Below, piece after piece: positions 7,406 through 59,504 of a DNA stretch of 64,000 nucleotides. The notes beneath the pieces were generated by a model. That model made no database searches and had not been told where the DNA came from. It saw nothing but the letters and a program-made list of their open reading frames with translations. The stretch comes from Clostridia bacterium (GTDB taxonomy: Bacteria > Bacillota > DTU025). The stretch spans positions 5,841 through 69,840 of the forward strand of contig JAYFQW010000024.1 in the NCBI GenBank assembly GCA_034926675.1, written 5' to 3'. How positions within the stretch are numbered: the first letter of the stretch is position 1; every line of letters starts with the position of its first letter. Made by a program: the position numbers and the translations under genes.

Positions 7406-7885
7406 TCAGGGGCCTGTTCTCCAGGCCTCCTTCACCGTCCTTTCGATCTCTGCCGTAAGGTCAGGTCCGAGCGCGCACTGCGGAGAGTTGACCTCGGAAG
7501 TAGTGCGATTCTCAACGATGAGGACCGCCGCGTCAGGACTCAGCACGTGAGTGTGCCAGACTGACCGTCGCACGTTGTACGCCTTCATGGGGTTCATCTC
7601 AAGCGCCCTCATCGACTCAACAGATCCATCCGGAGCGCCGCTCTCGAAAGCAAACAGAATGCACTTCCCGGCAAGCAGCACGAACACTTCGTCGGTCTCG
7701 TCGTGGCGCTGCATTGAGCGGATGTTCCCCGGCGCAACCCCGTCACAGAAACGCAATACCGCAACTCGCCATTCTCCGAAGTCTATCAATGGACTATACC
7801 CATCTGAGGTCATCGGGTATTCGTCGATCAGATGCGCGATACCCGCACGGCTTAACATGGCAGCACCCCACATTCTCTCACCCAA
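7406..7885 (-). CDS. Hypothetical protein, possibly cupin-fold; last gene of the sugar locus
   Basis: 159 aa with no recognisable catalytic motif. It overlaps the stop of the upstream GH gene by 8 bp, which suggests co-transcription. Confidence 0.4.
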   Translation of the reverse strand: MGERMWGAAMLSRAGIAHLIDEYPMTSDGYSPLIDFGEWRVAVLRFCDGVAPGNIRSMQRHDETDEVFVLLAGKCILFAFESGAPDGSVESMRALEMNPMKAYNVRRSVWHTHVLSPDAAVLIVENRTTSEVNSPQCALGPDLTAEIERTVKEAWRTGP

Positions 7886-10670
7886 GCTCCACGCGGATTC
7901 TGTGCTCGCACTGCGAATCCAGGGCTTCGATGGCGCTCCGCGGCGCCAGAGCCCCTCGCGAGGTCAGCTTGAAGGATAGTTCCGCTCCGTCGACTGTCAC
8001 TGCAGTCACCCTGTATTCGCCATATTGCTTATGATGCTGATTGTGGTACTCGATCCACAGTCGCCGATCAGCATGCACACACTGGACCCCAGCGCACCCC
8101 GATGAATCGAACTCATCGGCAAGAAGCCTTGGGCAGAACAGCAAGTCGCCCATGGCGCCGCGCACTCCGTAGGCCTCGGATATCATGGTGATCAGGAGCC
8201 AGCTCGCGGATCCGGTAAGGTAGTGGTACACCCCACGCCCTCTCGCATCGATGTATTCGGGGATCCCTGGGTACATTCGGCTCGCGCCCGCGTCGCGGCA
8301 CAGCTTGTATACGGACTGCACGACATCCCGTCCCTCGGAGGCAAACCCGCGCTTGTATAGCGCGTTCGCGTACATCACCGCCATGTGGCTGAACATCGCC
8401 CCGTTCTCCTTGTGCCCATATGCGAAACTAAAGCACCTGCCCATGTCAGGGCGGGGGCAGATAGTGTTAGTGTTCAGGCGAATCCCTCCGTTGGCCGGAT
8501 CAGCCAGGCGTTTGCGCACTGCGCTGATGATCTTGCGCACCTGTTCATCACGGGCCGCGCCTCCCATTACCGTGAACACCTGCCCAGTTAGGGTCATCAC
8601 ATCGCCACCAACAGCAACATCGCCCGCGCCAGCGCCCGCATCAGCGCCCTCCAGCGAGTTCCCAGCATTGTCGTAGTATCCGTTGAACCAGCCAGATCCG
8701 TCGCCGGCCTCTATCCACTCCTCCTGCCTGATGTGCTCCTTGATCCATCGCGCCTTCCGTCGCAGATCGGCCCCAAGATCAGCCGCGGGGACTCTCCTCT
8801 TTCGCCCGCTCACCATGCCAGAACAGGACGCGAAGTACTCGCCGAGCACAGCGCGCTTGTCCGGCACTGAATCGTAGTCGGTGAGATGACCGCCAGCAGT
8901 ATCGATGAGGGGAGTGAGTTCCTCGGCAATCTCCAGTTCCAGCCCTGCCCGGATGCCACTTTCCATTGCGCCGTTTCGCCCAGGGCACGAGCTCTCGCCC
9001 AGGCCAGCCTCGCAGCTGCCTTTGCACGCGGCAAGGGCGTCTATCAGCTCAGCCAACCCCTCGAGGTTCCATCCATACATCGCAGTGAATGCCACGCTTT
9101 CCCCGCGGTCGCTCGCCATGTCGAGCGCATCATTCCAGTCGGCGCCCTCCAGGCGGATGGAGTTGTGCTCACCCACGTTGAAGAACTGCACCAGATGGGG
9201 AACAAGGAGATGCTCCAGGACCGACCCCAAGTATTCGGCGCCATCGGCCCGCCTGAGAACAGGCGGTTCGGCAGGGTTCCACCGTTCATCGCGCCGCTGC
9301 GCCCGGTCGAGCAGACCGTCTCTGAAGTAGCGCTGCTCCGAAAGGAGAAATTCGATATCTCCAGTGAGGTCGATGTACATCCTCACAGCTAGATACGGCC
9401 ATGCTCCGTGGTCCATCCACACCCTGGGAATACCGTTCCTATCGGCTACGAACTCCCCCGGATCGTGTCCGATTATCGTGGCATTGCTGCCATCGATCCT
9501 CACCCCTGCCAGACCCGACAGAAGCAGTTCCCGGGCGGGCTCGGGCTCCAGAAGAAGAACAGCAAGGCAATCCTGCCAAAGATCTCGCCAACCTCTGCCG
9601 CCCTTGCCGTAGTCATGATGCGGAAGGAACGAGCATCCGTAGATCCGTCTGAGCATCGGTTGAAGCGTCACCCATCTCATCCACGCATCGAACTGTGGAT
9701 CTCTCCCGTGGAAGGCGATTCCCCCAACCTTGCGCTCCCAGTGGGCGCAACACTCCGCCAACTGCTCTTCGAACGCCTTCGCAGAGCAGTACTTCTCGGC
9801 CAACCCGTCCACGTTGTCTTCGGAGATGGCCATGGCAATCACGTACGATCTGCTTTCCCCTGGCCGGAGCACGGCCTTTTCGAATCGGAGCGCTCCGGCA
9901 GCCTCATAGCCATCCACATTGGCCCCGGCGGGCAGCCAGTCGTCGGCATTTTCCACCACCGCTCTGGGCCATTCAAGGTTTCCACCCTCTCCCACGAAAT
10001 CGAGGAGCGCAGGATAGGTTCCCACGGGCGGCGCGCCGTCTTCATCAGCTCCGAGCACCGCATATGTCAGGCGATTGGGCCTATGCCCACGTTCGTCGAA
10101 AGACATCGTCGGTGTAACCGTGACTCCGTACCGGGTAGTGCGAGCCCGGTTAAGAAGCGATGTCACGTGCCGATGGTCCCTGATATTATCGGCAGACCGA
10201 CAATACATGGGTATTGCAGCGGTTGGGGTGATCTTCCGTGGATGCGCGCCCGTATTTGTCACCTTCACCAGCATTAGCTCAACCCGGTCGGCGCCCACCG
10301 GGACGAAGTTCGTGATCTCCGCCGAGATGAGGGCCTCGCGGGAGGCCCGGGTCACCCGGTGCCACAGGAACCCTGCATCAACCGTGACATCCTCTTTGGC
10401 GCAAGAGAACCCCATGGCGACCTGCCGGGCGGAATTCCCCGAGGCAGACCACGGGCCATACCCATCGACATACACCCAGAAATTCCTCGCCCAGCGCGAC
10501 TCGTGGAGATCCTCCGCGCTCGCAGGAGGCATCAGGTAAGCATGTTGCCCGGCCTTGATATCGCCGTGAAGCGTGGGCGTGATAGAGCACATCATCCCCG
10601 CTTCGTTGGCAAGCGGGAAGTACAGGTAGCTGATGCCGTCTGCACTCGGAAACGTGAACTCGCCTCTCAT
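7878..10670 (-). CDS. Glycoside hydrolase/phosphorylase of the GH94-like (GH36-superfamily, (alpha/alpha)6-barrel) type, cellobiose-phosphorylase-like
   Basis: 930 aa cytoplasmic protein with a GADWNDALD motif reminiscent of the GH94 catalytic region. It lies immediately downstream of two sugar ABC permeases. The family assignment is tentative. Confidence 0.55.
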   Translation of the reverse strand: MRGEFTFPSADGISYLYFPLANEAGMMCSITPTLHGDIKAGQHAYLMPPASAEDLHESRWARNFWVYVDGYGPWSASGNSARQVAMGFSCAKEDVTVDAGFLWHRVTRASREALISAEITNFVPVGADRVELMLVKVTNTGAHPRKITPTAAIPMYCRSADNIRDHRHVTSLLNRARTTRYGVTVTPTMSFDERGHRPNRLTYAVLGADEDGAPPVGTYPALLDFVGEGGNLEWPRAVVENADDWLPAGANVDGYEAAGALRFEKAVLRPGESRSYVIAMAISEDNVDGLAEKYCSAKAFEEQLAECCAHWERKVGGIAFHGRDPQFDAWMRWVTLQPMLRRIYGCSFLPHHDYGKGGRGWRDLWQDCLAVLLLEPEPARELLLSGLAGVRIDGSNATIIGHDPGEFVADRNGIPRVWMDHGAWPYLAVRMYIDLTGDIEFLLSEQRYFRDGLLDRAQRRDERWNPAEPPVLRRADGAEYLGSVLEHLLVPHLVQFFNVGEHNSIRLEGADWNDALDMASDRGESVAFTAMYGWNLEGLAELIDALAACKGSCEAGLGESSCPGRNGAMESGIRAGLELEIAEELTPLIDTAGGHLTDYDSVPDKRAVLGEYFASCSGMVSGRKRRVPAADLGADLRRKARWIKEHIRQEEWIEAGDGSGWFNGYYDNAGNSLEGADAGAGAGDVAVGGDVMTLTGQVFTVMGGAARDEQVRKIISAVRKRLADPANGGIRLNTNTICPRPDMGRCFSFAYGHKENGAMFSHMAVMYANALYKRGFASEGRDVVQSVYKLCRDAGASRMYPGIPEYIDARGRGVYHYLTGSASWLLITMISEAYGVRGAMGDLLFCPRLLADEFDSSGCAGVQCVHADRRLWIEYHNQHHKQYGEYRVTAVTVDGAELSFKLTSRGALAPRSAIEALDSQCEHRIRVELG

Positions 10671-21751: not shown

Positions 21752-24208
21752 TCACCACCGCGCCGCACGCTCGTCCACTGCGAATCCAAGCACCGTGAGT
21801 GTGGGCATCATCGAGAGTGTAGCACATGCCACCACACCTGAATCATTGAAGGCCATGGCCGCGCCTGCGCCCGCTAGCCCTGCAAGGAATGCGGCATAAA
21901 GTGGAAACCTCTCATTCCTGAGCCTGAGAAGCGGTCCTGAGGGCCTTACCGCAAGGGCCCCGAGGGCGAGCAGGAAGGCAATGAGAACCCTGGTCCAAGC
22001 CGTGCAGCTCAGCAGTCTCAGGTTCATCTGAAGCTTGCGAACGACCATGATCGCCGCCTGCGCTGGCCCACCTGACTCAATCTCCTGCCATGCTCGCCCT
22101 ATATGGCTGGGCTCTCCTGCGCCAGCGTCCATCAACACCATGGCGGCGCCTAGCGCAAGTGCTCCCACAATCGCAGCTGCTATCACCATGGCGCGCCTTC
22201 GGGCACGGGATACACATGGAAGCTCGGCGCATGCCTCATGGCAACGGTCAGGGCGTGCGGCGCCAACTCCTCCCGGACGCCCGGGCGTGATCGCAAGCAT
22301 CGCAATCGCCGCAGCGAACGCCGACAGCATCCCGCCGAAATTCGCACCCAGACACGGATGCCCCAGGAACACACCTGTCACCGCCGCCAGAATCGCAACT
22401 GCCAGGTTCGCCCCTCCTGAACGCGCCCGGCTCGTGGCGTCGATGCCATTCTCGCCGCGGTTCCCGCGCCGGTTCTCGATGCAGCGCAGACTGCGTTCGA
22501 CAGCGTCCACGATCCCAGCGCTCGATACCACCACAGACCCTACTAGCACCCCCATGAGCTCATTCCCCACACCGTAGTATCTGGCCCCGATCACGGCAGA
22601 ATGCCCTATCAGTGAGGATGCGCATGCGGTTCCGCCGGTCACCGCGTCGGCAGCTATTGCGATGCTTGTTGCGCCCGCGACTGCCAGGACGGCATTCGCG
22701 GCAGATCTGAACGCCGCGAGCGCAGCAGCTGCGATTACTGATGCCAGGACTGCGGCCAGCACGCCAGTCTGCACTGTGCCGACCGTTCCCAGGGCTGAAC
22801 AGGCCAGGAGCGCGAGAGGTCCCGCTGCCACAGCTGGCAGCAATGACGTAGCCACGCCCACCAGAACCCGTGAGGGCGAGAAGTCGAACACAATCGCCAG
22901 GGCCGCAGCGAACACGGTCGCTACTATAAGCCCGATGAAAACTCTCAGAACCGGGCCTCGGGCGTGCGCTGCTGATGTAGCCGAAGCTCCGATGGCCGCC
23001 GCTCGTCTGAGACCATTCGAAGCAGGAATGCACTCCATTGGGGCGCCATCGCAAGGCCAAGCTGCTTCGATCCCTAGTCCGGCAAGGATAGTCGGGACCA
23101 GATCCAGATTGGTCACGATCCCGGTCCGTCTTGTCGTAGCGGCCGTGAGTAGGCCAGATGTAAACCCCCAGCCGGAAATCGCCACAGGCGCTAGAGAGGA
23201 CAACCTCACGCTGCCCGCTGTGGGGGAAGGAGAGCCAGCCCAGGCAGATGCGGGCGCCTCAGGAGATAGGATTATGTAGGCCCTGCTTTCAGAGGGCGGT
23301 CCTACCAGGGAGAACAGGCGCCCGAGCAGCTCATCCAGTCGCCTGTAACACCCTCGCGCCTGTTCCACGCGTCCCGCTGCTGATAGGCTCCTGCTTTCCC
23401 GCGCGGCACGCGCGAAATCCCCGAAATCCACAACTGCCACGCTCGCCCCGTCAGGCCCGGCCATGGCAGCGGCCACTGCCCGAGCGATTCTCTCCACACC
23501 GCACGCCATGCCGTAGGACGCTCTGGGATCACGAACGATGGTGTCTGCGCCCACATCCCCTCTGGAAACAATGCCCCGCTCGTCCATGGCCAGCAGCGCT
23601 CCGGGCCGAGAATGCAAATGCACATCATCGGAGTTCCCAATCAAGTACACTCCAAGCCCGGCAGTGGAGATGGACTCTCCGAGAAGCCCCGGTCTGCCCC
23701 TGTACTGTGACCCCGCATTGTCACGAACAAGCTCTGCAATCCCCATCACCATCACGGAGCCTGCCGCAGGAACGTCACGGGCGCCCAGTCCAAGCATCCT
23801 TGCATACATACCAGCAGCACTTTCACCATGAAAGGCTTCGTCTGCGCCGAACCCAGCGCCGGCGGATGCAGCAGCCACCATTCTCCGCCCGGCGCCTAGA
23901 GCAGCACAGGCCGCGAGTTCCCCTATGATGGCAGAGTCCCCGCCACTCCCGCTGCTGCTGCCTGCGCCTGGTCCTGGGTCTTCACCGGAAGCGGCCGTTC
24001 TCGCGTTGGCCACGCCGATGGCGGAGGAATTGAGCAAAGACCGAAGAAAACTGCCCCCGTACTCGAGTGCGTCCTCCCAGGAGAGGCCGTTTGCCAGCAG
24101 CACAACCGCACAAGGCGCCGGACCGGCCGGCGGAAGCGAAGCACCCGACGCGGCCAATGTCGACGATGCCGCGGACACCAAAGCAGCTGATGTCGCGGAT
24201 GTCGACAC
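21752..24208 (-). CDS. Large hypothetical membrane protein: N-terminal alkaline-phosphatase-superfamily-like domain followed by a polytopic Ala/Gly-rich membrane domain
   Basis: 818 aa. The N-terminal half carries VVLLANGLS...GIVTNLDLVPTILAGLG, which resembles AlkP/sulfatase-core motifs. The C-terminal 400 aa contain at least 10 hydrophobic helices. No confident family assignment, and the start is uncertain. Confidence 0.5.
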   Translation of the reverse strand: MSTSATSAALVSAASSTLAASGASLPPAGPAPCAVVLLANGLSWEDALEYGGSFLRSLLNSSAIGVANARTAASGEDPGPGAGSSSGSGGDSAIIGELAACAALGAGRRMVAAASAGAGFGADEAFHGESAAGMYARMLGLGARDVPAAGSVMVMGIAELVRDNAGSQYRGRPGLLGESISTAGLGVYLIGNSDDVHLHSRPGALLAMDERGIVSRGDVGADTIVRDPRASYGMACGVERIARAVAAAMAGPDGASVAVVDFGDFARAARESRSLSAAGRVEQARGCYRRLDELLGRLFSLVGPPSESRAYIILSPEAPASAWAGSPSPTAGSVRLSSLAPVAISGWGFTSGLLTAATTRRTGIVTNLDLVPTILAGLGIEAAWPCDGAPMECIPASNGLRRAAAIGASATSAAHARGPVLRVFIGLIVATVFAAALAIVFDFSPSRVLVGVATSLLPAVAAGPLALLACSALGTVGTVQTGVLAAVLASVIAAAALAAFRSAANAVLAVAGATSIAIAADAVTGGTACASSLIGHSAVIGARYYGVGNELMGVLVGSVVVSSAGIVDAVERSLRCIENRRGNRGENGIDATSRARSGGANLAVAILAAVTGVFLGHPCLGANFGGMLSAFAAAIAMLAITPGRPGGVGAARPDRCHEACAELPCVSRARRRAMVIAAAIVGALALGAAMVLMDAGAGEPSHIGRAWQEIESGGPAQAAIMVVRKLQMNLRLLSCTAWTRVLIAFLLALGALAVRPSGPLLRLRNERFPLYAAFLAGLAGAGAAMAFNDSGVVACATLSMMPTLTVLGFAVDERAARW

Positions 24209-44143: not shown

Positions 44144-45880
44144 TCATGTTTGCACCCGGTCGCGCTCATCCCGGACGACCTTCGCCAGGAGATCGCGATC
44201 GAACTCATCGACAATGTAGAGGGTCCCATGGGCCACCTCCGCCAGCCTGCGAAGGAACCCCTTGTTCGGGGACAGTCCTATGCACGTGAAGGGAAGACCG
44301 TACTTGGCTATCTGCTCGGCCGCAGTGAGAGCATCCCGTGCAGGGTCTCCAGTCCACTGGTTCATAGTGGGAATCCCATCAGTGAGCAGCACCAGGAGAG
44401 TGGGCGTGGCTTTGCTGCTCGCGAGTACGCGGACCGCCTCGACAATCCCCGCGGCAAGCGGAGTGAGCCCTGCCGGTCTCACGGTTGCCAACCCGTCCTC
44501 CAGCGCCTTCACGGAACGGGCTCGCACCACGTGGCAGGTCACAGATCGATCCTGGAAGGTAAGCACGGTCACCTTGTCGCGGCACGCAAGAAACAGATAC
44601 CTTGCAAGATGCTTCGCGGCCTGGATGCGCTTCCCGGCCATGCTGGCGCTTGCGTCGATCAACAGGCATACGTCGACCTTTCGTCTCCGCCGCCTCTGCT
44701 CGATGCGGACATCGTCTCTCTGCATCGGCAGTATCTCGCCGCTCTTGGCGCACCTCACCGCCCAGGTGGTTACTGTCTCAGGCACAGCGATCTCGCCCCG
44801 GAAATCTGCCTCATCTGCGCGCATTGTGCGAAGAGCAGAGTAATGACCTGCTTTGCCCGCAGAGGAGACCGCGAAATCGCTCCGCTCAAGCGGTGTGCAG
44901 GCTGGCCGAGCCGCCCTGCGGATAAGCCTATGCATCTGGGTTTCGACCTCGCGGGCGAACCGGCGAAGGAAATCCCGGATCCGGAGGCCTTTATCAGAAA
45001 GCGTCACCGAAGCGCCGTCTCCGTCAACTATCTCCAGCGCACGGAGCCTTGCGAGCATGCCCTCGGCATCGCCGAATTCCCGTTCGAGCATGGCATATGG
45101 GCTCTCGCGCCTGTTTGGACTGGCGGCACACTCCAGGAAGGATCGAAGGCTGGTTACAGAACCGAAATCCGCCGACGCATCCAGCGCGTCTTTCATCTCA
45201 GCTGAACGGTCCGTCCCTGAGCCCGGCTGATTGTCCTCGCGAAGCAGCGAATCCATCTGCGAAGAGTATGGCGATAGGTCCAGCGGACTGCCTATGACGG
45301 AATGGTTGTTAGCCACCCTCTCAACCTGACGCAACTCACCCCCTGCCAACCTTATGGCGAGTTCTACTTCGCGGACGAGATAGTAGATCAGGCCCGTCGC
45401 ATCAGGTGGAAGCATGGCTGCAAGATGGACATGGCCTCTGTGCGCAGTTCGGAGCGACGCCTTTCTGCCGAACTTGAGGCTGCCAGTGGCCCGGCCGCCG
45501 CCAGTCCCGGTCTGCACGTCCACGAAGTCCGCGAGGTTTCCAGATGGCCATGATCTAAGCGACCACGGCTCAGGCCCAATACACATCTCCCTCGCGAATT
45601 CCTCCGCTGCATGCCTCACAGCTAAAGCCACCGCAGTGTGGTCTATGTCTGCCAGGGCGTGGAAAACGTCGAGGTGCACGACTTCGAAGGCCTTGGATCT
45701 TCCGTAGAAGACCTGCCCTGCGTCTGCCATGCACCTCACCGTCATCACCTCGGGATGCGCAGGGTCGAGTATGTGAATGCGCCTCGACGCCACTGCAGTC
45801 TCCCCTATGCGCACCCCGAGCCCCCTATCCAGCTCCTGGTTCACGTCTCTGGTGAATGCCGCTATTTCCTCAAGCCTCAA
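44144..45880 (-). CDS. VWA (von Willebrand factor A, MIDAS) domain protein with an about 380-aa N-terminal domain of unknown function; ChlD-like partner of the upstream AAA+
   Basis: 578 aa. The C-terminus VDVCLLIDASASMAGKRI...LLTDGIPT is a MIDAS-type VWA. It overlaps the upstream AAA+ gene by 4 bp (ATGA). Confidence 0.65.
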   Translation of the reverse strand: MRLEEIAAFTRDVNQELDRGLGVRIGETAVASRRIHILDPAHPEVMTVRCMADAGQVFYGRSKAFEVVHLDVFHALADIDHTAVALAVRHAAEEFAREMCIGPEPWSLRSWPSGNLADFVDVQTGTGGGRATGSLKFGRKASLRTAHRGHVHLAAMLPPDATGLIYYLVREVELAIRLAGGELRQVERVANNHSVIGSPLDLSPYSSQMDSLLREDNQPGSGTDRSAEMKDALDASADFGSVTSLRSFLECAASPNRRESPYAMLEREFGDAEGMLARLRALEIVDGDGASVTLSDKGLRIRDFLRRFAREVETQMHRLIRRAARPACTPLERSDFAVSSAGKAGHYSALRTMRADEADFRGEIAVPETVTTWAVRCAKSGEILPMQRDDVRIEQRRRRRKVDVCLLIDASASMAGKRIQAAKHLARYLFLACRDKVTVLTFQDRSVTCHVVRARSVKALEDGLATVRPAGLTPLAAGIVEAVRVLASSKATPTLLVLLTDGIPTMNQWTGDPARDALTAAEQIAKYGLPFTCIGLSPNKGFLRRLAEVAHGTLYIVDEFDRDLLAKVVRDERDRVQT

Positions 45881-47568
45881 CTCAAGTCATCCTCTGCGAA
45901 GACGACCTTGGGGCCGATGTCGGTTATGGGGCGCGCAGGGTTGGGCGGACATGCTTCGCACACCGCAGGCCCGCCTCCGCCCTCATCAGCATCGCCATGC
46001 ACACCAGAACCCACGCTCGCCCTGGCGCCGCCAATCCCGTTTCCTCCGTCTGTCGGGCTTCCGCACCCGGCTGACCTTCTCCCCTGGCCTCCGCCATCCT
46101 CAGGTCCGGCTCCGGATCCGGAGTCAGCCCCATCGGATTTCATGCGCTCGAACACCCTGTGGAGCATCCCACGGATTCCAGGCATCCCGGCAATGCCGGG
46201 TTGGCCCCCAGGCCCGGCCCCAGATCCAAGCCCAAGCCCGGGCCCGGGCCCCGCCCCAACTCTCGACTCCCAGCTGCGGTCGTAGCACTGACCACCGCCC
46301 CCTAGCGCAGACCCTGGCGTCTGCCCAGGCCCCGAGCAGCCCCCTCCTGCCAGGGCAGAGGTTGGCCTGCCGGCCGACTTCTCCTGCATCGCGTCAACGT
46401 ACCGAAGGATGCTCGACAGGGCAGCAATCTCCACCCTGTGCCTTAGCACCGCTGGCAGCACTGCCCTGATGTCCTCCAGCGCAACACAGCTTCTGCCCGC
46501 CAGAGCTGCCCTGCACCTCGAGGTGATCCTGGCTGATTCCATGGCCCTGATGCTCTCGATATCGAAGTCCACGTATATCTGGGCAAGAAGCTCGACCAAC
46601 TCGTCAGGGTAGCTGACCCGCGGAACGAGGGCGCCCGCTGCCACGAGCCGGCCCTTCCATCCCCCCGAACCAGGATCAGCCGGAGCGGATGCAGCGCCCC
46701 TGCTGCCTTCGGGAGCAGACAGCGAGAGCTGCCTGCTCTGGGCGCAAAAGTCGTCGAGCTCTAGGATCCTCCTGATCATCGGCAACTCGCTCGCTCGGCC
46801 CATCTCAACCGACAGATCAAACCTATCGGAAAGCTGCCTCCTCACGTCCTCCAAAGGGCCCGGGTCCTCGTCAGGGTTGGACGCGGACCATACCGAGATC
46901 TCCACAGGCACCGCCACCACCGGGAGACCAGACTCCTCGATCTGCACCCTGCCGGGCTTCGTTCCCATTACATCTAGCAAGACATCGGTTAGCTCGGGGG
47001 AGGTGTCGGCAAGCCGGTTTATCTCATCGATGAAGACTATGCCCCGGTTCGCTCTGGGGATCGTGCCGAGCAGGATGGCAGCGCCTGGCCTCTCTCGGTC
47101 CATTACCTTAGCAAGATCGATGCTGCCTACCACCGTGCCAAGCTTGGCCGAGTGGGATACCTCGAGGAATGGCATCATGATCCTCTCTGAGCTGAGGTCG
47201 TGAAGGCGTGACAGAGGCATGTCGCGATGGACTGGGCAGTGTGGCGCCCATGGCCTGCAGTTGTACTCGCAGCCAGTAATCCGATCGATCCTGGGAAGAA
47301 CGCCAGCCGCCGAGCGCATTATGGTGGTCTTTCCGGTTCCTCTCACGCCTTCCGCGTGCACATGCACTGGCCGCCCCGCTATGGCCGCCACAATGGAGAT
47401 CTCCACTGCTTCAAACAGAGCAGCGTTTCCCTCATGCTTCACAAGGCTCTCGTATGGGCGCAAAAGGAACCCCTCCGCGTCGGTATTGTGCGAAGAGTAG
47501 TATTGCACCGCGCGTGGAGTTTGATCCCCAGTCGGCGGATCACAGCAAGCATGCTCCGTTGATCTCAA
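45877..47568 (-). CDS. ChlI/BchI-type AAA+ ATPase (Mg-chelatase subunit I family) with a long Gly/Pro-rich C-terminal tail
   Basis: 563 aa. GVRGTGKTTIMRSAAGVLP...CEYNC...PFLEVSHSAKLGTVVGSIDL...ANRGIVFIDEINRLADTSPELTDVLLDVMG...LSDRFDLSV aligns segment by segment with BchI/ChlI. The C-terminal 200 aa are Gly-rich low complexity. Confidence 0.7.
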   Translation of the reverse strand: MRSTEHACCDPPTGDQTPRAVQYYSSHNTDAEGFLLRPYESLVKHEGNAALFEAVEISIVAAIAGRPVHVHAEGVRGTGKTTIMRSAAGVLPRIDRITGCEYNCRPWAPHCPVHRDMPLSRLHDLSSERIMMPFLEVSHSAKLGTVVGSIDLAKVMDRERPGAAILLGTIPRANRGIVFIDEINRLADTSPELTDVLLDVMGTKPGRVQIEESGLPVVAVPVEISVWSASNPDEDPGPLEDVRRQLSDRFDLSVEMGRASELPMIRRILELDDFCAQSRQLSLSAPEGSRGAASAPADPGSGGWKGRLVAAGALVPRVSYPDELVELLAQIYVDFDIESIRAMESARITSRCRAALAGRSCVALEDIRAVLPAVLRHRVEIAALSSILRYVDAMQEKSAGRPTSALAGGGCSGPGQTPGSALGGGGQCYDRSWESRVGAGPGPGLGLGSGAGPGGQPGIAGMPGIRGMLHRVFERMKSDGADSGSGAGPEDGGGQGRRSAGCGSPTDGGNGIGGARASVGSGVHGDADEGGGGPAVCEACPPNPARPITDIGPKVVFAEDDLS

Positions 47569-48424
47569 GACCGAACTTGCAGTTGAGCACGGTTGCGGCC
47601 TTTCTGCACATGGTCATGCGGGATAGGAATATCTCGAAGTATTCCATTACGGGGCACATCTCAGTATCGGTCACGAGTGAGAGCGTAATGAGCCTGTGCT
47701 CAGCGTCGATATCCAGCCGGGATTTGGTGGCCGCGTATGACACTCGGTCGTGGATATCGAAGGAGGCCACGTCGCGGTTCCGGACGCGAGTCCGGTGCAC
47801 GTCGGTCTTGTCGGCAAGAATAACCGCTGCCGACACCTCGTTCACAGGGTGGCCATATTCCTCCTCGTGGTTGCCGACTGCCGCCATCACCAGGGCCGTC
47901 TCTTCCACGCTCATGCCCATCCTGGTGAGAAGGGACCACGCCATAATCGCACTGCTCTGTCCGTGATGATCCCTCGACACGACGTTTCCGATATCGTGGA
48001 TATATCCAGCGATGCCCGCAAGCTCCGCCCATCTGGGGTCGTACTTCAGTGTTTCAAGGACATTGTGGGCGATGCTCGACACCAGAAACGCGTGGCGCGG
48101 GCCGTGCTCTGTGTATCCCATCGCTCCAAGGTTCAAGTTCGCCCGTTCCACCAGAGCATTCACCTCGGGGTTGCTCCGCACATCCTTGATGCTCAGCTTT
48201 CCATCCATATGATCATCATCACCTCTGTTGTGTGCTCGCGCGCCCCGCGAGTCTACCCCACACCTACGCCGACAGCCGCGCCATGCAGGCGCGGCCGCCG
48301 TTCTCCGTATGGGCGTTATCCGTGTGGACGTGGACATCGTTCGCTGTGAGCCTACATGTAGTCGAACGCGAACTGATCCAACGGCCCGAAAGGCACGTAC
48401 AGAGTCCATGTGATCTTCTTCCAT
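47540..48424 (-). CDS. HD-domain metal-dependent phosphohydrolase
   Basis: HGPRHAFLVSSIAHNV...IAGYIHDIGNVVSRDHHGQSS matches the H...HD...D motif set. The real start is probably MDGKLSIKDVRS (about 48208), because the upstream part of the ORF overlaps the next gene. Confidence 0.7.
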   Translation of the reverse strand: MEEDHMDSVRAFRAVGSVRVRLHVGSQRTMSTSTRITPIRRTAAAPAWRGCRRRCGVDSRGARAHNRGDDDHMDGKLSIKDVRSNPEVNALVERANLNLGAMGYTEHGPRHAFLVSSIAHNVLETLKYDPRWAELAGIAGYIHDIGNVVSRDHHGQSSAIMAWSLLTRMGMSVEETALVMAAVGNHEEEYGHPVNEVSAAVILADKTDVHRTRVRNRDVASFDIHDRVSYAATKSRLDIDAEHRLITLSLVTDTEMCPVMEYFEIFLSRMTMCRKAATVLNCKFGLEINGACLL

Positions 48425-49137
48425 TGCCTTCCTGAGAAGGCAGGATCAGCGCTCCAAAACGGCAGTATGGCATATGTGCGCATCGTCTCGCCTTTAGCCA
48501 GCGGTTTCTCAGGCAGTAATTCGGGCGCGCTCGCGTAGTACTTCTGCCTGACTGCTCCATCCGCATCCACCACATAGAAAGCCTCTATCGACGGAAGCAC
48601 CATGCAATCCGCTGGTCCGGATATGTTCTCCACTAGGAGGTCGATCTTTACCTCGGGAGGGGCCTCAAGAAGTCCGAGGACAGTGACGCGCACTCCGCCT
48701 ATCTCCTGAGGCGTTGCGAAAAGCCCCTTCCGGTAGGAGAGGGAAACCCATTCGCGGCCCATCATGCGATCATCGACCACGGCGGGGCGGCCTTCGATAT
48801 CGCGAATCTTCAGGTATCTGACTCGCAACTGCCCGTCAGCATTGACGTAGTACACCTTCGCACGGATGCTCTCGCCGAGAACACTCGACTCCACCTTGGA
48901 TATCGATGTGATGCCGTCGGTCTTGCCATCTCTAGCAGAGACATATTCCACCCACGAAAGCGCTGCGTCGGAACAGAAGGACTGCGCCCGCTTCCAGTCG
49001 CACTTCTGAAAAGCACTGACGAACTCCGCCGCGACCGCCTCTGCAGCATCAGCGGCAGCTGCGGCATAGGGGATGCACATGCCCGCCAGGAGAGCTGCGG
49101 CAAGCGCATATGTAATCCAGGTTCTTCTCGTAATCAT
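48352..49137 (-). CDS. Hypothetical secreted protein (signal peptide; unknown function)
   Basis: 261 aa starting MITRRTWITYALAAALLAGMCIPYAAAAADA, with no recognisable domain. Confidence 0.5.
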   Translation of the reverse strand: MITRRTWITYALAAALLAGMCIPYAAAAADAAEAVAAEFVSAFQKCDWKRAQSFCSDAALSWVEYVSARDGKTDGITSISKVESSVLGESIRAKVYYVNADGQLRVRYLKIRDIEGRPAVVDDRMMGREWVSLSYRKGLFATPQEIGGVRVTVLGLLEAPPEVKIDLLVENISGPADCMVLPSIEAFYVVDADGAVRQKYYASAPELLPEKPLAKGETMRTYAILPFWSADPAFSGRQWKKITWTLYVPFGPLDQFAFDYM

Positions 49138-56662: not shown

Positions 56663-57208
56663 CTATCGCGAGAGTCCAATCCTTCCAAGGATCGATTCCT
56701 CAAGCGCTCTCATATCCGCTGCACCCTGCTGAGTCTCGTGGTCATGCCCCGCCAGGTGAAGCACACCGTGGACAGTGAGATAGCAGACCTCTCTCGCAAG
56801 AGAGTGGCCGTACTCCTCTGCCTGTTCCCGAGCGCGAGGGAGCGATATTACCACATCACCGAGAAGCTCATCAGGCATTGAACACTCGATCTCTTCTTCT
56901 TCATCCCCAGCAGGTATCATGTTGGGATGATCGGGCAGTTCCGCCAGCTCGATATCTGTGGCATCGTCAGCAATCAGTTCGTCTGGGTCCTCGAGAGGGA
57001 AAGATAGAACATCGGTGGGCGCGTCGATGCCGCGGTAGTCGGCATTAAGCCTGGCTATCTCAGCGTCATCCACGAAACTCACATCAACCTCGAAATCATC
57101 TCTTCCTAGAACGGTTTGAAGTGCTATCTGAACTGCCTCCCTTACTTTGCCCTCGAGGTCGGGAGCCAGATCGACCTCGTCCTGTCGGTCAACTATCTCC
57201 ACTGACAT
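56663..57208 (-). CDS. ybeY: rRNA maturation endoribonuclease YbeY
   Basis: 181 aa with HGVLHLAGHDHE (H3xH5xH zinc motif). Confidence 0.88.
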   Translation of the reverse strand: MSVEIVDRQDEVDLAPDLEGKVREAVQIALQTVLGRDDFEVDVSFVDDAEIARLNADYRGIDAPTDVLSFPLEDPDELIADDATDIELAELPDHPNMIPAGDEEEEIECSMPDELLGDVVISLPRAREQAEEYGHSLAREVCYLTVHGVLHLAGHDHETQQGAADMRALEESILGRIGLSR

Positions 57209-59504
57209 GCGGCGTTGCTCCTCCCTCGGATCCAGACGCTGAGTGCGCCTGCTCCGTCACCATCTCCGCCTGACTCGCCTGAGAATCGGCGCAGACTGCC
57301 TTGACTTCCGGCTGGCGCTCCTTTGGGGAGTCCTTCTGCACAAGGTCAGGGTATTCGACCCGCTCGTGGTACACACCAGAAAGAACACCCATAAAGGCCG
57401 TCTCCATCGCATTCAAGTCTTTGAGTGTGAGTTCGCATTCGTCGAGCTGTCCATCGTTGAGCTTGTCCTTGACTATCTTTTTCACAGTGTTGTTGATCCG
57501 CCACTGTGAAGGATTCGGCAACGCCCGAACAGCAGCCTCAGTCGAGTCGGCCAGCATGACTATTGCCGCCTCTCTGCTCTGTGGTTTAGGCCCAGGGTAC
57601 CGAAAGTCCTTTTCGTCCACGCACAAGTCCCGATCACTCTCAGTGGCCCTGTAGTAGAAGAATGATACGAGCCCCGTCCCATGGTGTTGCTGAGCAATAT
57701 CCACCACTGCCTCGGGAAGCCGGAATTCGCGGGCCAGATCGGCGCCGTCCTTCGCATGCGACGTTATGATCAGAGTCGAAAGCGACGGACTGATCTTGTC
57801 GTGCGGGTTCGCCTGAGCAAGTTGGTTCTCCGCGAAGAAGTATGGACGCTTCAGTTTGCCGCAATCGTGGTACAGGGCGCCAACCCTCACTAGCAGAGCA
57901 TCAGCTCCGATGGCTTGCGCCGCTGCCTCTGCCAGGTTTCCCACAAGTATAGAATGATGGTAGGTCCCGGGCGCCTCAAGCAACAGCCTTCTGAGCAAAG
58001 GATGGCCTGGATTTGATAGCTCGAGGAGGCGCAGGGGAGATACCGCCCCGAATATGGCCTCGAAGAATGGCAGAAAACCAAGGGTCATCACGGTCGATAT
58101 TATACCATTCACGAATCCGAGATACCATCTCGAAGAGATCGCTGGCTCGCCGAAGGCGGATCCGTATATGAACGACACAGCCGCAATGGCTCCGCCAACG
58201 TACAGCGCTGCGCCGGTCATGCTTGTCCTGTCGCGTAGCCTAGGGATCGCATAGGCGCCGCACGCCCCCGCCGCAGCTGCGACAAGGACTGCAAACATGT
58301 CGCCGCGCATCAAGGCTCCTACCAGCACCGCCACTGACAGGTTGACCACCAGAGCCATTTCAAGGGATACGAGAGACGAGATCACCATGGCCGCAAAGGC
58401 AGCTGGCGCCAGGTAAGGCGCTAAATCCGGCACAACGCTTACAAGCACAGCGCTAGACAGAAGCGACACCAGCCCAGCGACTGCCGAAAGCGCCAGCACT
58501 CCCTGAGCGGACGGGACTCTAGGGGTGAACCTCCTGATGTACGCGGAGGTGTAGGCCACTGCCGTCGCACACAGCGCGACCACGCCAATCCATCCGAGTA
58601 GATTCCCGCGCTTACCCAGAAGGCCCAGATCGGCAAGGATCGCGATCTGCTCTTCAGTAGCTGGATCGCCCCGCCTGATGATGCTCTGCCCCTTGTGAAT
58701 GTACACGGCCTGCACCATCTTGGCCTGTTCGTCCGCTGCCTTCTCCACCCCTGCAAGATTCAGCGATAGATTGGGCCTCAAGGCCGCCACCACCACGCGC
58801 GATGCTGGTCGGATCGCCACTGCTAGGACTCCAAGGCGCGCAAGATCATCAGGAATCCCGCTCGAAACCGCCTGCAGATTGGAATCGGTGATTCGGATTT
58901 CCCTCATCGTGTCTCCAGCCAACGAGACTGCCGCAGACTTGACCGAGTCCAGCTGGGCCCGATCCAGGTCTGCCAGGATCGCCAAGTCATCCACAGACAC
59001 CGAAAGCCCCTTGGCCTCCGTGAGCAGACGCTGGGCAGCACGTGCAACAGCCTGAGCTGAAGCCTTGGGATCATTGGCGTTTGCGGATACAACAGCGGCG
59101 AATACCGAATCCACCGCCTCTTCGGCCATGTACGAGTACGACAGATTGACCTCGTAGTTCCCTGAGAAGCTTGGGGCATTCCTCAGATATGCCTTGCGCG
59201 CGTCCTCCCTGAGCTTGTCCGTGGCGACTCTGTTCACAACGGTGCGTGGAGCATCTATGTCCCTCTTGGCAAGCTGCCCAGGAGCAAGCTCCACCGCCCT
59301 AGGCAGAAGGACCCACGACACCATCACCGCCGCGACGGCTACTGCCACGAAGGCTATCGTGAGGCGGCTTCCGAAAACCGCGCCAATTGCCGCCGAAACA
59401 CGGGATTTCGAGCCAGACGCTCCTCGCGAAGCCGCTCGTGGGCATGCTGTGGCGCCCGGCCGCCCGCTTCCACCCTGTGACTGGCCCTGTGTTGGCTGTG
59501 CCAC
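57189..59504 (-). CDS. pgpH: 7TM-receptor-HD phosphohydrolase (PgpH/YqfF, c-di-AMP phosphodiesterase family)
   Basis: 771 aa with an extracytoplasmic N-domain, a 7TM domain and a C-terminal HD domain (HSILVGNLAEAAA...HD). Follows the phoH-yqfF-ybeY-dgkA-cdd-era order. Confidence 0.8.
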   Translation of the reverse strand: MAQPTQGQSQGGSGRPGATACPRAASRGASGSKSRVSAAIGAVFGSRLTIAFVAVAVAAVMVSWVLLPRAVELAPGQLAKRDIDAPRTVVNRVATDKLREDARKAYLRNAPSFSGNYEVNLSYSYMAEEAVDSVFAAVVSANANDPKASAQAVARAAQRLLTEAKGLSVSVDDLAILADLDRAQLDSVKSAAVSLAGDTMREIRITDSNLQAVSSGIPDDLARLGVLAVAIRPASRVVVAALRPNLSLNLAGVEKAADEQAKMVQAVYIHKGQSIIRRGDPATEEQIAILADLGLLGKRGNLLGWIGVVALCATAVAYTSAYIRRFTPRVPSAQGVLALSAVAGLVSLLSSAVLVSVVPDLAPYLAPAAFAAMVISSLVSLEMALVVNLSVAVLVGALMRGDMFAVLVAAAAGACGAYAIPRLRDRTSMTGAALYVGGAIAAVSFIYGSAFGEPAISSRWYLGFVNGIISTVMTLGFLPFFEAIFGAVSPLRLLELSNPGHPLLRRLLLEAPGTYHHSILVGNLAEAAAQAIGADALLVRVGALYHDCGKLKRPYFFAENQLAQANPHDKISPSLSTLIITSHAKDGADLAREFRLPEAVVDIAQQHHGTGLVSFFYYRATESDRDLCVDEKDFRYPGPKPQSREAAIVMLADSTEAAVRALPNPSQWRINNTVKKIVKDKLNDGQLDECELTLKDLNAMETAFMGVLSGVYHERVEYPDLVQKDSPKERQPEVKAVCADSQASQAEMVTEQAHSASGSEGGATPHVSGDS

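Follow-up and report, generated by a model that had tools for sequence, protein, structure and literature searches.

A ChlI-type AAA+/VWA gene pair conserved upstream of recJ in anaerobic Bacillota is a candidate chelatase-like metal-handling machine

The locus lies in a 64,000-nucleotide stretch (the window) of contig JAYFQW010000024.1 from a Clostridia bacterium, where an earlier, sequence-only reading had described three tightly packed minus-strand genes encoding an HD phosphohydrolase, a ChlI-type AAA+ protein and a VWA protein. The ORF listing of the window confirmed all three, as consecutive minus-strand frames at 47540–48424, 45877–47568 and 44144–45880, and profile, PDB and homologue matches support the domain identities. 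The longest AAA+ frame extends to 47568, which gives the 563-aa numbering used here; the start is most likely the TTG at 47463 (528 aa), with GGAGG 8 nt upstream, and this is also the start of the protein in NCBI record VB144_07420 (528 aa). The HD gene most likely begins not at 48424 but at the ATG at 48208, which has a GAGGTGA ribosome-binding site. With the starts corrected in this way, the HD and AAA+ genes do not overlap and are 76 nt apart, so the tight packing holds for the AAA+ and VWA genes, whose stop and start share the bases TTGA. The features of the locus are collected in Table 1.

Table 1. Features of the locus, with positions in the window
Feature	Position	Strand	Basis or remark
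HD-superfamily hydrolase gene, 222 aa	47540..48208	-	Weak Pfam HD match; neighbour outside the pair
ChlI/BchI-type AAA+ ATPase gene (motor)	45877..47463	-	PDB, NCBIfam and Pfam AAA_lid_2 matches
Walker A GVRGTGKT, aa 74–81 (563-aa ORF numbering)	47326..47349	-	Aligns with ChlI Walker A
Cys/His insert C100-x3-C104-x4-P-H-C111-P-x-H114	47227..47271	-	Family conservation
Walker B IVFIDE, aa 177–182	47023..47040	-	Aligns with ChlI Walker B
Low-complexity Gly/Pro/Ser/Ala-rich linker of AAA+, aa ~396–539	45952..46383	-	Composition
Conserved C-terminal short motif of AAA+, CPPNPARPITDIGPKVVFAEDDLS	45880..45951	-	67-member tail alignment
VWA protein gene, 578 aa	44144..45880	-	Translational coupling to AAA+ via TTGA overlap
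N-terminal α+β domain, aa 1–215	45236..45880	-	Conserved His/Asp/Glu cluster
Winged-helix-like segment, aa ~240–325	44906..45163	-	Weak profile matches
Low-confidence linker, aa ~326–362, just ahead of VWA domain	44795..44905	-	Model block means
VWA domain with complete MIDAS	44147..44794	-	DASAS 409–413 (nt 44642–44656), T473, D501

Residues 70–387 of the AAA+ protein align with the solved ChlI and BchI structures (PDB IDs: 8osf, E 5e-19; 6l8d; 1g8p), and no other PDB entry matches it at E ≤ 0.001. The Walker A, Walker B and RxQLxDRFD arginine-finger motifs all align with those of ChlI/BchI. Across 67 family members most Walker A positions and both D181 and E182 of Walker B are invariant, and the arginine-finger motif is invariant in the family. 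A ComM/YifB identity was rejected on the PDB matches, and searches of Pfam (E ≤ 0.01) and NCBIfam returned no other family of the ComM/YifB type, leaving the ChlI-type assignment in place. The matches to the NCBIfam models TIGR02030 (BchI-ChlI, 3e-28) and TIGR02442 (1e-38) are both far under the equivalog cut-offs. The Cys/His insert falls in a stretch that is free of Cys in the aligned ChlI sequences; C100, C104, P109, C111, P112 and H114 are invariant among the 67 members and H110 is kept in at least 90%, a pattern suggesting a probable zinc site. The Gly/Pro-rich low-complexity tail reported previously was also recovered: Gly, Pro, Ser and Ala make up 57% of the C-terminal ~170 aa, producing a local GC peak of 0.686 that is the sole composition anomaly at the locus. 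A short imperfect 12-nt repeat lies within the linker. Past residue 395 the tail, terminal motif included, varies between 75 and 220 aa across the family. The terminal motif has the family consensus APPxkARPLxQL..VFTEEDL, and at least 60–70% of the 67 members keep its PP, hydrophobic and acidic EED-L positions.

The VWA protein has full-length homologues (31–66% identity) in 242 species genomes, and its VWA domain carries the expected MIDAS, complete and invariant in the family. The preceding 380 residues, previously taken as one domain of unknown fold, comprise three parts (domain, winged-helix-like segment and linker), and the lack of a known fold holds for residues 1–215. This N-terminal domain is confidently modelled by structure prediction, matched no known family or fold, is confined to the VWA protein's own family and had no match in plasmids or phages; we describe it as a new α+β domain. 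Its conserved cluster (H36, D53, H69, D71, H74, H150, H152 and E173) is retained even in a distant branch at 31% identity, with all residues falling on predicted strands (34–38, 45–53, 67–74 and 150–156) except E173, which sits on predicted helix 164–178. Given the identity of these residues and their placement on adjacent β-strands in the model, a divalent metal is the most likely ligand of the invariant cluster. Further conserved positions in the main branch are D121, Q123, T124, GGGR127–130 and H147; as this GGGR/Q-T-G loop and H147 are invariant in the main branch only, the chemistry may not be the same in both branches. Instead of being a metal donor, the domain could be an enzyme, a metal-dependent hydrolase or ligase that the AAA+ and VWA parts activate or deliver to its target, which we consider unlikely. 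The winged-helix-like segment gave weak matches to the winged helices of Sso10a, PH0730, SloR/IdeR and CggR (E 0.005–0.3); the AF2 model has helices at 242–322, and the few invariant or near-invariant positions are L279, L294, T295 and G298. Around the linker, ten-residue block means in the model are 64 (321–330), 83 (331–340) and 53 (341–350), with residues 341–347 below 50.

We compared gene neighbourhoods in 80 retained related genomes from Clostridia and Negativicutes. In almost all of them the AAA+/VWA pair directly precedes recJ-relA-dtd, or relA in loci that lack recJ, and in ~70 of the 80 loci, across Clostridia and Negativicutes, it lies 0.1–3 kb upstream of recJ. The two genes adjoin in 78 tabulated loci, in most of which the AAA+ stop and the VWA start are at most a few bases apart. 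The pair is intact at other genome sites in Phosphitispora (L090 and L092) and is found at unrelated sites in the distant branch, while Thermacetogenium phaeum has the AAA+ gene and no adjoining VWA gene, which counts against reading the two as a pair. The sequence-only reading had regarded the genes as inserted between yajC and recJ and as an oddity of this genome. Neither view survives the comparison: the pair occupies its usual site, which is filled in the same way across Clostridia and Negativicutes, and is native to the position upstream of recJ. The interval in the window is unusual in lacking secDF and in holding a clade-specific 261-aa hypothetical protein.

No ChlH/CobN-like ORF was found in the window, whose largest ORFs encode GH94, AlaRS, PriA, 7TM-HD, a PBP and similar proteins, and no CobN/ChlH, cob/cbi or tetrapyrrole genes were found there or in 93 related loci (1.5 Mb in total), in agreement with the earlier statement on the window. 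Our literature search found no description of any AAA+/VWA family member. Among the closest known systems is class I Mg-chelatase, ChlI/BchI with ChlD/BchD (PDB IDs: 8osf, 6l8d, 1g8p and 2x31). The AAA+ protein aligns with ChlI/BchI over its full ATPase and lid region, with Walker A/B, arginine finger and sensor 2 all matched, the C-terminal VWA-MIDAS domain is homologous to that of BchD, and a flexible Pro/Gly-rich linker again separates the ATPase and VWA functions, although here it is on the motor and not the adaptor. Unlike ChlI, the motor has the invariant Cys/His insert; unlike ChlD/BchD, the adaptor has no AAA+-like N-half, and carries the His-rich domain and winged-helix-like segment; and scores far under the equivalog cut-offs and the lack of a nearby ChlH partner set the pair apart from Mg-chelatase. 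TIGR02442, a 'putative cobaltochelatase' model of fused ChlI-linker-VWA proteins that occur with CobN, is the best NCBIfam match of both proteins, and because the AAA+ protein matches positions 28–314 and the VWA protein 422–638, the pair looks like such a fusion split at the linker. It differs in being two coupled genes, in having ~360 extra N-terminal residues on the VWA half, in scoring 133 and 84 bits where the cut-off is 779, and in lacking a CobN context.

In CobSTN the work is divided into motor, adaptor and executor, and the adaptor CobT has an N-domain followed by a shaft and a VWA-MIDAS domain (bioRxiv 10.64898/2026.07.21.739949). The pair shares this motor and adaptor logic, with an adaptor that runs from N-domain through disordered linker to VWA-MIDAS at similar lengths, and residues ~326–362, placed like the shaft of CobT in CobST, are a candidate 'shaft' for the AAA+ ring. 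However, CobS is a MoxR-like AAA+ whereas ours is ChlI-type, the CobT N-domain is helical and M48C-like whereas here it is α+β and His-rich, and no equivalent of the executor CobN was found in the window or the 93 loci. As a rule, AAA+ proteins in the MoxR/chelatase clade act with a VWA co-factor responsible for substrate capture (PMC7159879). The chaperone pairs of this clade RavA-ViaA, CoxD-CoxE, NorQ-NorD and CbbQ-CbbO (PMC7159879) are also among the closest systems, but the AAA+ protein here is a member of the chelatase sub-clade and not of MoxR proper, and the N-domain is unique to its VWA family.

The pair could be a classical class I tetrapyrrole chelatase motor, a split ChlI/ChlD (CobS/CobT-like) unit for a CobN or ChlH encoded at another place in the genome, for example in B12 cobalt insertion, which we judge improbable. 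The best profile matches (TIGR02442 for both proteins, and BchI/BchD) and the CobT-like adaptor layout fit this, and BchI/ChlI homologues of non-photosynthetic Firmicutes have been assumed to stand in for CobS/T with CobN (PMC3595025). The scores are far under the equivalog cut-offs, however (in addition to those above, 99 bits against 467), the head of the adaptor resembles neither ChlD/BchD nor CobT, the CobN/ChlH and cob/cbi genes are missing from the window and the 93 loci, and the pair keeps its place among recJ, relA and dtd from class to class.

Improbable to the same degree is a nucleic-acid or stringent-response remodeller that works with RecJ, Apt and RelA, for instance by loading or regulating RecJ. 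The RecJ-family proteins Cdc45/GAN pair with the AAA+ helicase MCM, a relative of the chelatase clade, and such a role would echo that pairing; proximity to recJ, the winged-helix-like segment and weak precomputed MCM (PF00493) matches in some homologues point in the same direction. However, the surrounding block, queA-tgt-yajC-secDF-recJ-apt-relA-dtd-hisS, is long, conserved and mixed in function, so the neighbourhood carries little weight. The pair is also kept at loci without recJ (L001, L031, L076 and L079) and at the unrelated sites of the distant branch, and the invariant winged-helix positions are few.

The HD protein scored below the Pfam cut-off (19.9 bits against 22 for PF01966), and its assignment is instead backed by many homologues carrying PF01966 and the H..HD..H..D residues. 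That the HD, AAA+ and VWA genes form one functional module, a new insertion at a housekeeping site, as first proposed, is very unlikely, even though the window and its close relatives (L005–L015) have them next to one another on one strand. The HD family, with at least 8000 candidates at ~60% identity, far exceeds the pair in size and in conservation. Its normal order is yajC-HD-secDF; in Syntrophomonas wolfei and Limnochorda pilosa the genes run yajC-HD-secD-secF-LapA (then recJ in L. pilosa), with the pair absent from the 20-kb stretch. Outside the window's clade HD, where it falls inside the 10-kb flank, is 3–5 kb upstream of the pair; in the window it adjoins the pair because secDF is missing. 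The 76-nt gap, the usual site of the pair and the restriction of anomalous composition to the AAA+ tail likewise argue against a module. Judged by these sequence comparisons, the HD hydrolase is a housekeeping neighbour in its own right, unrelated to the pair. Least probable of all is a conflict or defence system comparable to the MoxR-vWA ternary systems. Known conflict systems are built around AAA+ and vWA pairs (PMC7159879), but PADLOC gave no match for the AAA+, VWA or 261-aa proteins and a marginal Cas3-HD match for HD alone (E 0.0098), the N-domain is unmatched in plasmids and phages, no effector or variable partner gene is present, and a housekeeping position fixed across classes is consistent with vertical inheritance.

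The reading we favour, with roughly even confidence, is that the AAA+/VWA pair is a compact chelatase-like motor and adaptor, a metal-handling or metal-insertion (maturation) machine whose client is not a tetrapyrrole. From homology and the conserved catalytic motifs, the AAA+ protein would form an ATP-hydrolysing ring that engages the VWA protein. By analogy, contact could be made at the disordered segment just ahead of the VWA domain; instead or in addition, the conserved acidic end of the Gly/Pro tail could dock on this partner, perhaps at its MIDAS metal. ATP-driven remodelling would act on or through the probably metal-binding N-terminal head, and this small domain, fused to the adaptor, would stand in for the large executor subunit (ChlH/CobN); an executor may also be encoded elsewhere in the genome, separate from the pair. 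The AAA+ and VWA genes are a conserved two-gene unit at a shared housekeeping site in many anaerobic Bacillota.

The ChlI/BchI-type AAA+ gene and the VWA-MIDAS gene that follows it (the pair) form a two-gene family, passed on vertically, that belongs with the AAA+/VWA motor-adaptor systems and contains a new domain. They belong to three consecutive minus-strand ORFs at 44144–48424 that are flanked by housekeeping genes; the order of transcription on this strand is cdd, era, queA, tgt, yajC, a gene for a 261-aa hypothetical protein, a putative HD-superfamily hydrolase gene (HD), AAA+, VWA, recJ, relA and dtd. HD most likely starts at the ATG at 48208, preceded by a GAGGTGA ribosome-binding site, which would give a product of 222 aa; its relatives are 219–222 aa long. 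The AAA+ gene most likely starts at a TTG codon at 47463, with GGAGG located 8 nt before it, and from this codon encodes 528 aa, the same as the deposited VB144_07420 (AAA+ residues are numbered here on the 563-aa ORF). With these refined starts, the gap between HD and AAA+ is 76 nt. VWA is translationally coupled to AAA+: its start shares the sequence TTGA with the stop of AAA+, and an AGAGGA site lies upstream. Scanning 39–53.5 kb for promoters and terminators gave counts within ~2 SD of the shuffled expectation and no informative sites. Homologues of the 261-aa protein were seen only in the clade of the window (related loci L005–L015), at the position of secDF in other Bacillota.

Features of the window, with coordinates as window positions
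Position	Strand	Feature	Description
7878–10670	−	930-aa protein	Glycoside hydrolase family 94 (cellobiose/chitobiose phosphorylase-like) catalytic and supersandwich domains
21752–24208	−	818-aa ORF	Ala/Gly-rich, several hydrophobic stretches, no Pfam family; from its sequence, probably a large membrane protein
44144–45880	−	VWA	VWA-MIDAS protein
45877–47463	−	AAA+	ChlI/BchI-type AAA+ protein
46206–46258		Tandem repeat	Imperfect 12-nt repeat CCCCAGGCCCGG, 4.4 copies, in the Gly/Pro-rich tail-coding region of AAA+
47540–48208	−	HD	Putative HD-superfamily hydrolase
48352–49137	−	261-aa hypothetical	Between yajC and HD; hydrophobic N-terminus; no Pfam or NCBIfam family
57189–59504	−	7TM-HD	7TM receptor with intracellular HD hydrolase domain (YqfF-like), second HD-domain protein of the window; in Limnochorda, the equivalent gene stands after yabP and yqfD, which are sporulation genes

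Judged by its sequence, the AAA+ protein falls within the chelatase clade but is not an equivalog. A search of the PDB aligned residues 70–387 with ChlI 8osf (5e-19), 6l8d and BchI 1g8p, ChlI/BchI being the sole matches at E ≤ 0.001, and the alignment spans Walker A, Walker B, the RxQLxDRFD arginine-finger motif and the LRHR sensor-2 region. With a Pfam match to AAA_lid_2 (1.4e-8), the protein has the set of features of chelatase-clade AAA+ proteins, and it lies below the equivalog cut-off of the BchI-ChlI family TIGR02030 (3e-28, 99.1 bits, cut-off 466.95). Its match to TIGR02442 (1e-38) scored 133.2 bits against a cut-off of 779.45. YifB and ComM have a Lon-like N-domain and a C-terminal domain besides a strong PF01078 core. 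We dropped a ComM/YifB identity for the AAA+ protein, as PF01078 scored 18.8 bits, below the cut-off of 20.3, and no other ComM/YifB-type families were found in Pfam (E ≤ 0.01) or NCBIfam.

Across 67 family members, most positions of Walker A, the D-E of Walker B and the arginine-finger motif are invariant, and on this sequence evidence the protein is apparently catalytically intact. A C-x3-C...C-P-x-H insert, missing from the aligned ChlI sequences, is likewise invariant in all 67. Beyond the lid, the sequence turns into a low-complexity tail, which measures 75–220 aa across the family and has a G/P/S/A content of 57% in the protein of the window; it ends in a conserved short motif with the consensus APPxkARPLxQL..VFTEEDL. 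The 12-nt repeat in its coding region is consistent with variation of tail length by slippage.

The VWA protein has a C-terminal VWA domain in which the MIDAS residues D409, S411, S413, T473 and D501 are all invariant among 94 homologues. Its full-length AlphaFold model has a pLDDT of 89.9, with residues 1–215 (the N-domain) forming an alpha+beta domain that, modelled alone, reaches a pLDDT of 90 and a pTM of 0.89. Whereas ChlD/BchD comprise an AAA+-like N-terminal half, a linker and a VWA-MIDAS domain, here the AAA+-like half is absent and the alpha+beta domain stands at the N-terminus; no AAA+ similarity was detected in these 215 residues. Against the BchD/ChlD family TIGR02031, only the VWA part (residues 384–552) matches, at 52 bits (cut-off 499.55), and the score against TIGR02442 is 84.2 bits (cut-off 779.45). 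TIGR02442, a putative cobaltochelatase, describes a single ChlI-VWA polypeptide, whereas here there are two genes, both below its cut-off. Residues ~240–325 give weak winged-helix matches, and residues ~326–362, immediately ahead of the VWA domain, contain a low-confidence stretch in the model.

Pfam returned nothing for the N-domain of the window and nothing consistent for 29 members (E ≤ 10), and a PDB profile search of the VWA protein matched the VWA and, weakly, the winged-helix parts, with no match to the N-domain. Out of 1.84 billion representative proteins, a profile of the N-domain matched only 167 clusters, and most of the full-length matches are 520–660 aa long and carry the domain N-terminally. 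Because the clusters are so few and mostly of this architecture, the N-domain is restricted to the VWA-protein family. Proteins of ~215 aa that consist of the N-domain alone (P0226, P0230, P0231 and P0242) were rejected as a separate architecture: P0230, the sole one placed, lies on a 1.9-kb contig with short ORFs after it and looks like a broken gene.

In the main branch, H36, D53, H69, D71, H74, D121, T124, G127-G128-G129-R130, H147, H150, H152, E173, R184, Y205 and D210 of the N-domain are invariant, and Q123 is at least 90% conserved. Most or all members of a distant branch of ~31% identity (e.g. Phosphitispora) retain G26, S32, H36, D53-A-G, H69, D71, H74, T124, G129, H150, H152 and E173. 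The shared His/Asp core lies on predicted strands 34–38, 45–53, 67–74 and 150–156, with E173 on helix 164–178, and the HxD and HxH spacing is predicted to turn each residue pair to the same side of its strand. From sequence and predicted secondary structure, we infer that the N-domain carries a putative metal site.

The default reading of such genes in the literature is a classical tetrapyrrole chelatase (PMC3595025), here with CobN encoded elsewhere in the genome. We consider this improbable: the equivalog scores are low, the AAA+-like half of ChlD is missing and the N-domain is new. Moreover, no ChlH, BchH or CobN gene was found in the 64-kb window or in 93 related loci (1.5 Mb in total), and the 93 loci also contain no cob genes. 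A literature search found no paper on the AAA+/VWA pair family. At the level of domains, the sequence-only observation was largely correct, and its interpretation is supported in part: the AAA+ protein is ChlI-type, the VWA domain bears a MIDAS site, and there is no ChlH nearby.

Of the species-representative genomes scanned, 242 carry a full-length homologue of the VWA protein (31–66% identity). The label 'orphan' in the sequence-only reading was wrong. We retained 80 of the 242 carriers; these include Clostridia (Thermosediminibacter, Tepidanaerobacter, Thermovorax, Fervidicola, Symbiobacterium), Negativicutes (Lucifera, Sporolituus) and many Bacillota MAGs. Nearly all loci read AAA+, VWA, an interval of 0.1–3 kb, then recJ, relA and dtd, with queA-tgt-yajC 3–8 kb upstream of the pair where the flank is long enough. 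AAA+ and VWA adjoin in 78 loci, mostly with a few bases from stop to start. Because gene order is constant in almost every locus, the pair is native to this site and was not inserted there, contrary to the sequence-only reading. Insertion or horizontal transfer was dropped on the position kept across classes and on searches of plasmid and phage collections, which gave no match to the N-domain; that the Gly/Pro tail is the only anomaly of composition also disfavours insertion.

Synteny is the one argument for linking the pair to RecJ or RelA. The syntenic block is long and mixed, and the pair persists where recJ is missing or at other sites, which makes such a link just as improbable as a classical chelatase. 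In Phosphitispora, for example, lrgAB and an HDOD gene flank the pair. The genes are thus adjacent and co-inherited, have an intact MIDAS site and are still paired at other sites, as expected of an AAA+/vWA chaperone pair.

Several further observations concern the related loci. In another member of the distant branch, a GerM ('Germane') gene and a glutamate/aspartate racemase gene follow the pair (L092 3318–3917, L091 4088–5578), hinting at a possible sporulation or cell-wall context. Thermacetogenium phaeum has an orphan 420-aa AAA+ of the pair family (L089 10001–11263) with no adjoining VWA gene, an Rce1-like protease gene after it and Cas4/Csa1 genes a few kb away. The pair also appears in records labelled Betaproteobacteria, Mycobacterium leprae, Chloroflexota, Bacteroidota and Ignavibacteriales MAGs (L038, L054, L080; also P0031, P0045, P0060). 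L038, L054 and L080 have the usual Bacillota order AAA+-VWA-recJ, and relA-dtd where the contig reaches, at 35–41% identity, and their taxonomic labels are probably wrong. In many relatives (L040, L072, L080, L088 and others), the recJ frames are unusually long, at 850–1200 codons stop-to-stop; the called recJ gene of L088 encodes 949 aa, compared with 578 aa in the window.

The HD protein matches PF01966 weakly (19.9 bits, cut-off 22) and contains the motif residues TEHGPRH, IHDIG, GNHEE and LADKTD; most of its close homologues have a precomputed PF01966 match. It belongs to a family of at least 8000 candidates, with homologues ~55–75% identical among the matches listed. HD occurs without the pair in Syntrophomonas wolfei (yajC-HD-secD-secF-LapA) and Limnochorda pilosa (yajC-HD-secD-secF-(ABC1/UbiB gene)-LapA-recJ). 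In carriers outside the clade of the window, HD lies 3–5 kb upstream of the pair, where inside the flank, and in Sporolituus secDF stands between them. HD adjoins the pair only in the clade of the window (L005–L015), in which that interval lacks secDF; tblastn with Limnochorda SecD and SecF gave no match in the 64-kb window, including the yajC-recJ interval (49169–44090). From the HD family, its contexts and the clade-limited adjacency, the proposed three-gene module is two independent conserved units side by side, and on the contexts without the pair and the synteny table we dropped the module as effectively excluded. A defence system is also effectively excluded, and is the least probable reading of all, since PADLOC-DB gave no match for the AAA+, VWA or 261-aa proteins and only a marginal Cas3-HD match for HD (E 0.0098), and searches of plasmid and phage collections with the N-domain found nothing.

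In MoxR/chelatase-clade AAA+ proteins, VWA co-factors hold the substrate and ATP hydrolysis passes on a conformational change (PMC7159879). In CobSTN, the motor ring takes in a 'shaft' segment ahead of the VWA domain of the adaptor, and the executor CobN lies near the MIDAS site (bioRxiv 10.64898/2026.07.21.739949). By analogy, the AAA+ ring of the pair may grip the VWA protein via the pre-VWA linker, the acidic tail motif or both, and ATP-driven remodelling would act on the putative metal-binding head, the N-domain. The outcome would be a compact chelatase-like metal-handling machine with the executor fused to the adaptor. Drawn from sequence, models and this analogy, the overall picture is to our minds evenly poised between right and wrong; within it, we rate complex formation and the motor/adaptor logic much higher and a specific role in metal delivery much lower. 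In its most specific form, the pair would be a self-contained two-subunit ATP-driven chelatase, in which a ChlI-type ring, tethered by its tail to the VWA adaptor, spends ATP on loading or unloading the metal of the N-domain and inserts this metal into a non-tetrapyrrole client (a protein or a cofactor); a 215-aa domain of new fold would replace the ~1200-aa ChlH/CobN. Such a new class of machine, mainly of anaerobic and thermophilic Bacillota, is a tentative proposal that we think rather unlikely to hold in full.

ChlI/ChlD-like genes of non-photosynthetic bacteria are usually annotated as 'magnesium chelatase' and presumed to be partners of CobN. The pair family is a distinct lineage at a housekeeping locus in ~240 Bacillota species representatives, with a new, probably metal-binding domain predicted in its adaptor and no executor subunit nearby. 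Its annotation should be corrected accordingly: it is probably not a Mg-chelatase, and it is neither a three-gene module nor an insertion; the N-domain is a defined new domain family fit for curation. If the compact-chelatase reading is true, the pair would be a minimal system for AAA+/VWA-driven metal insertion and would indicate that anaerobic Firmicutes have a metal-dependent maturation step not recognised so far.
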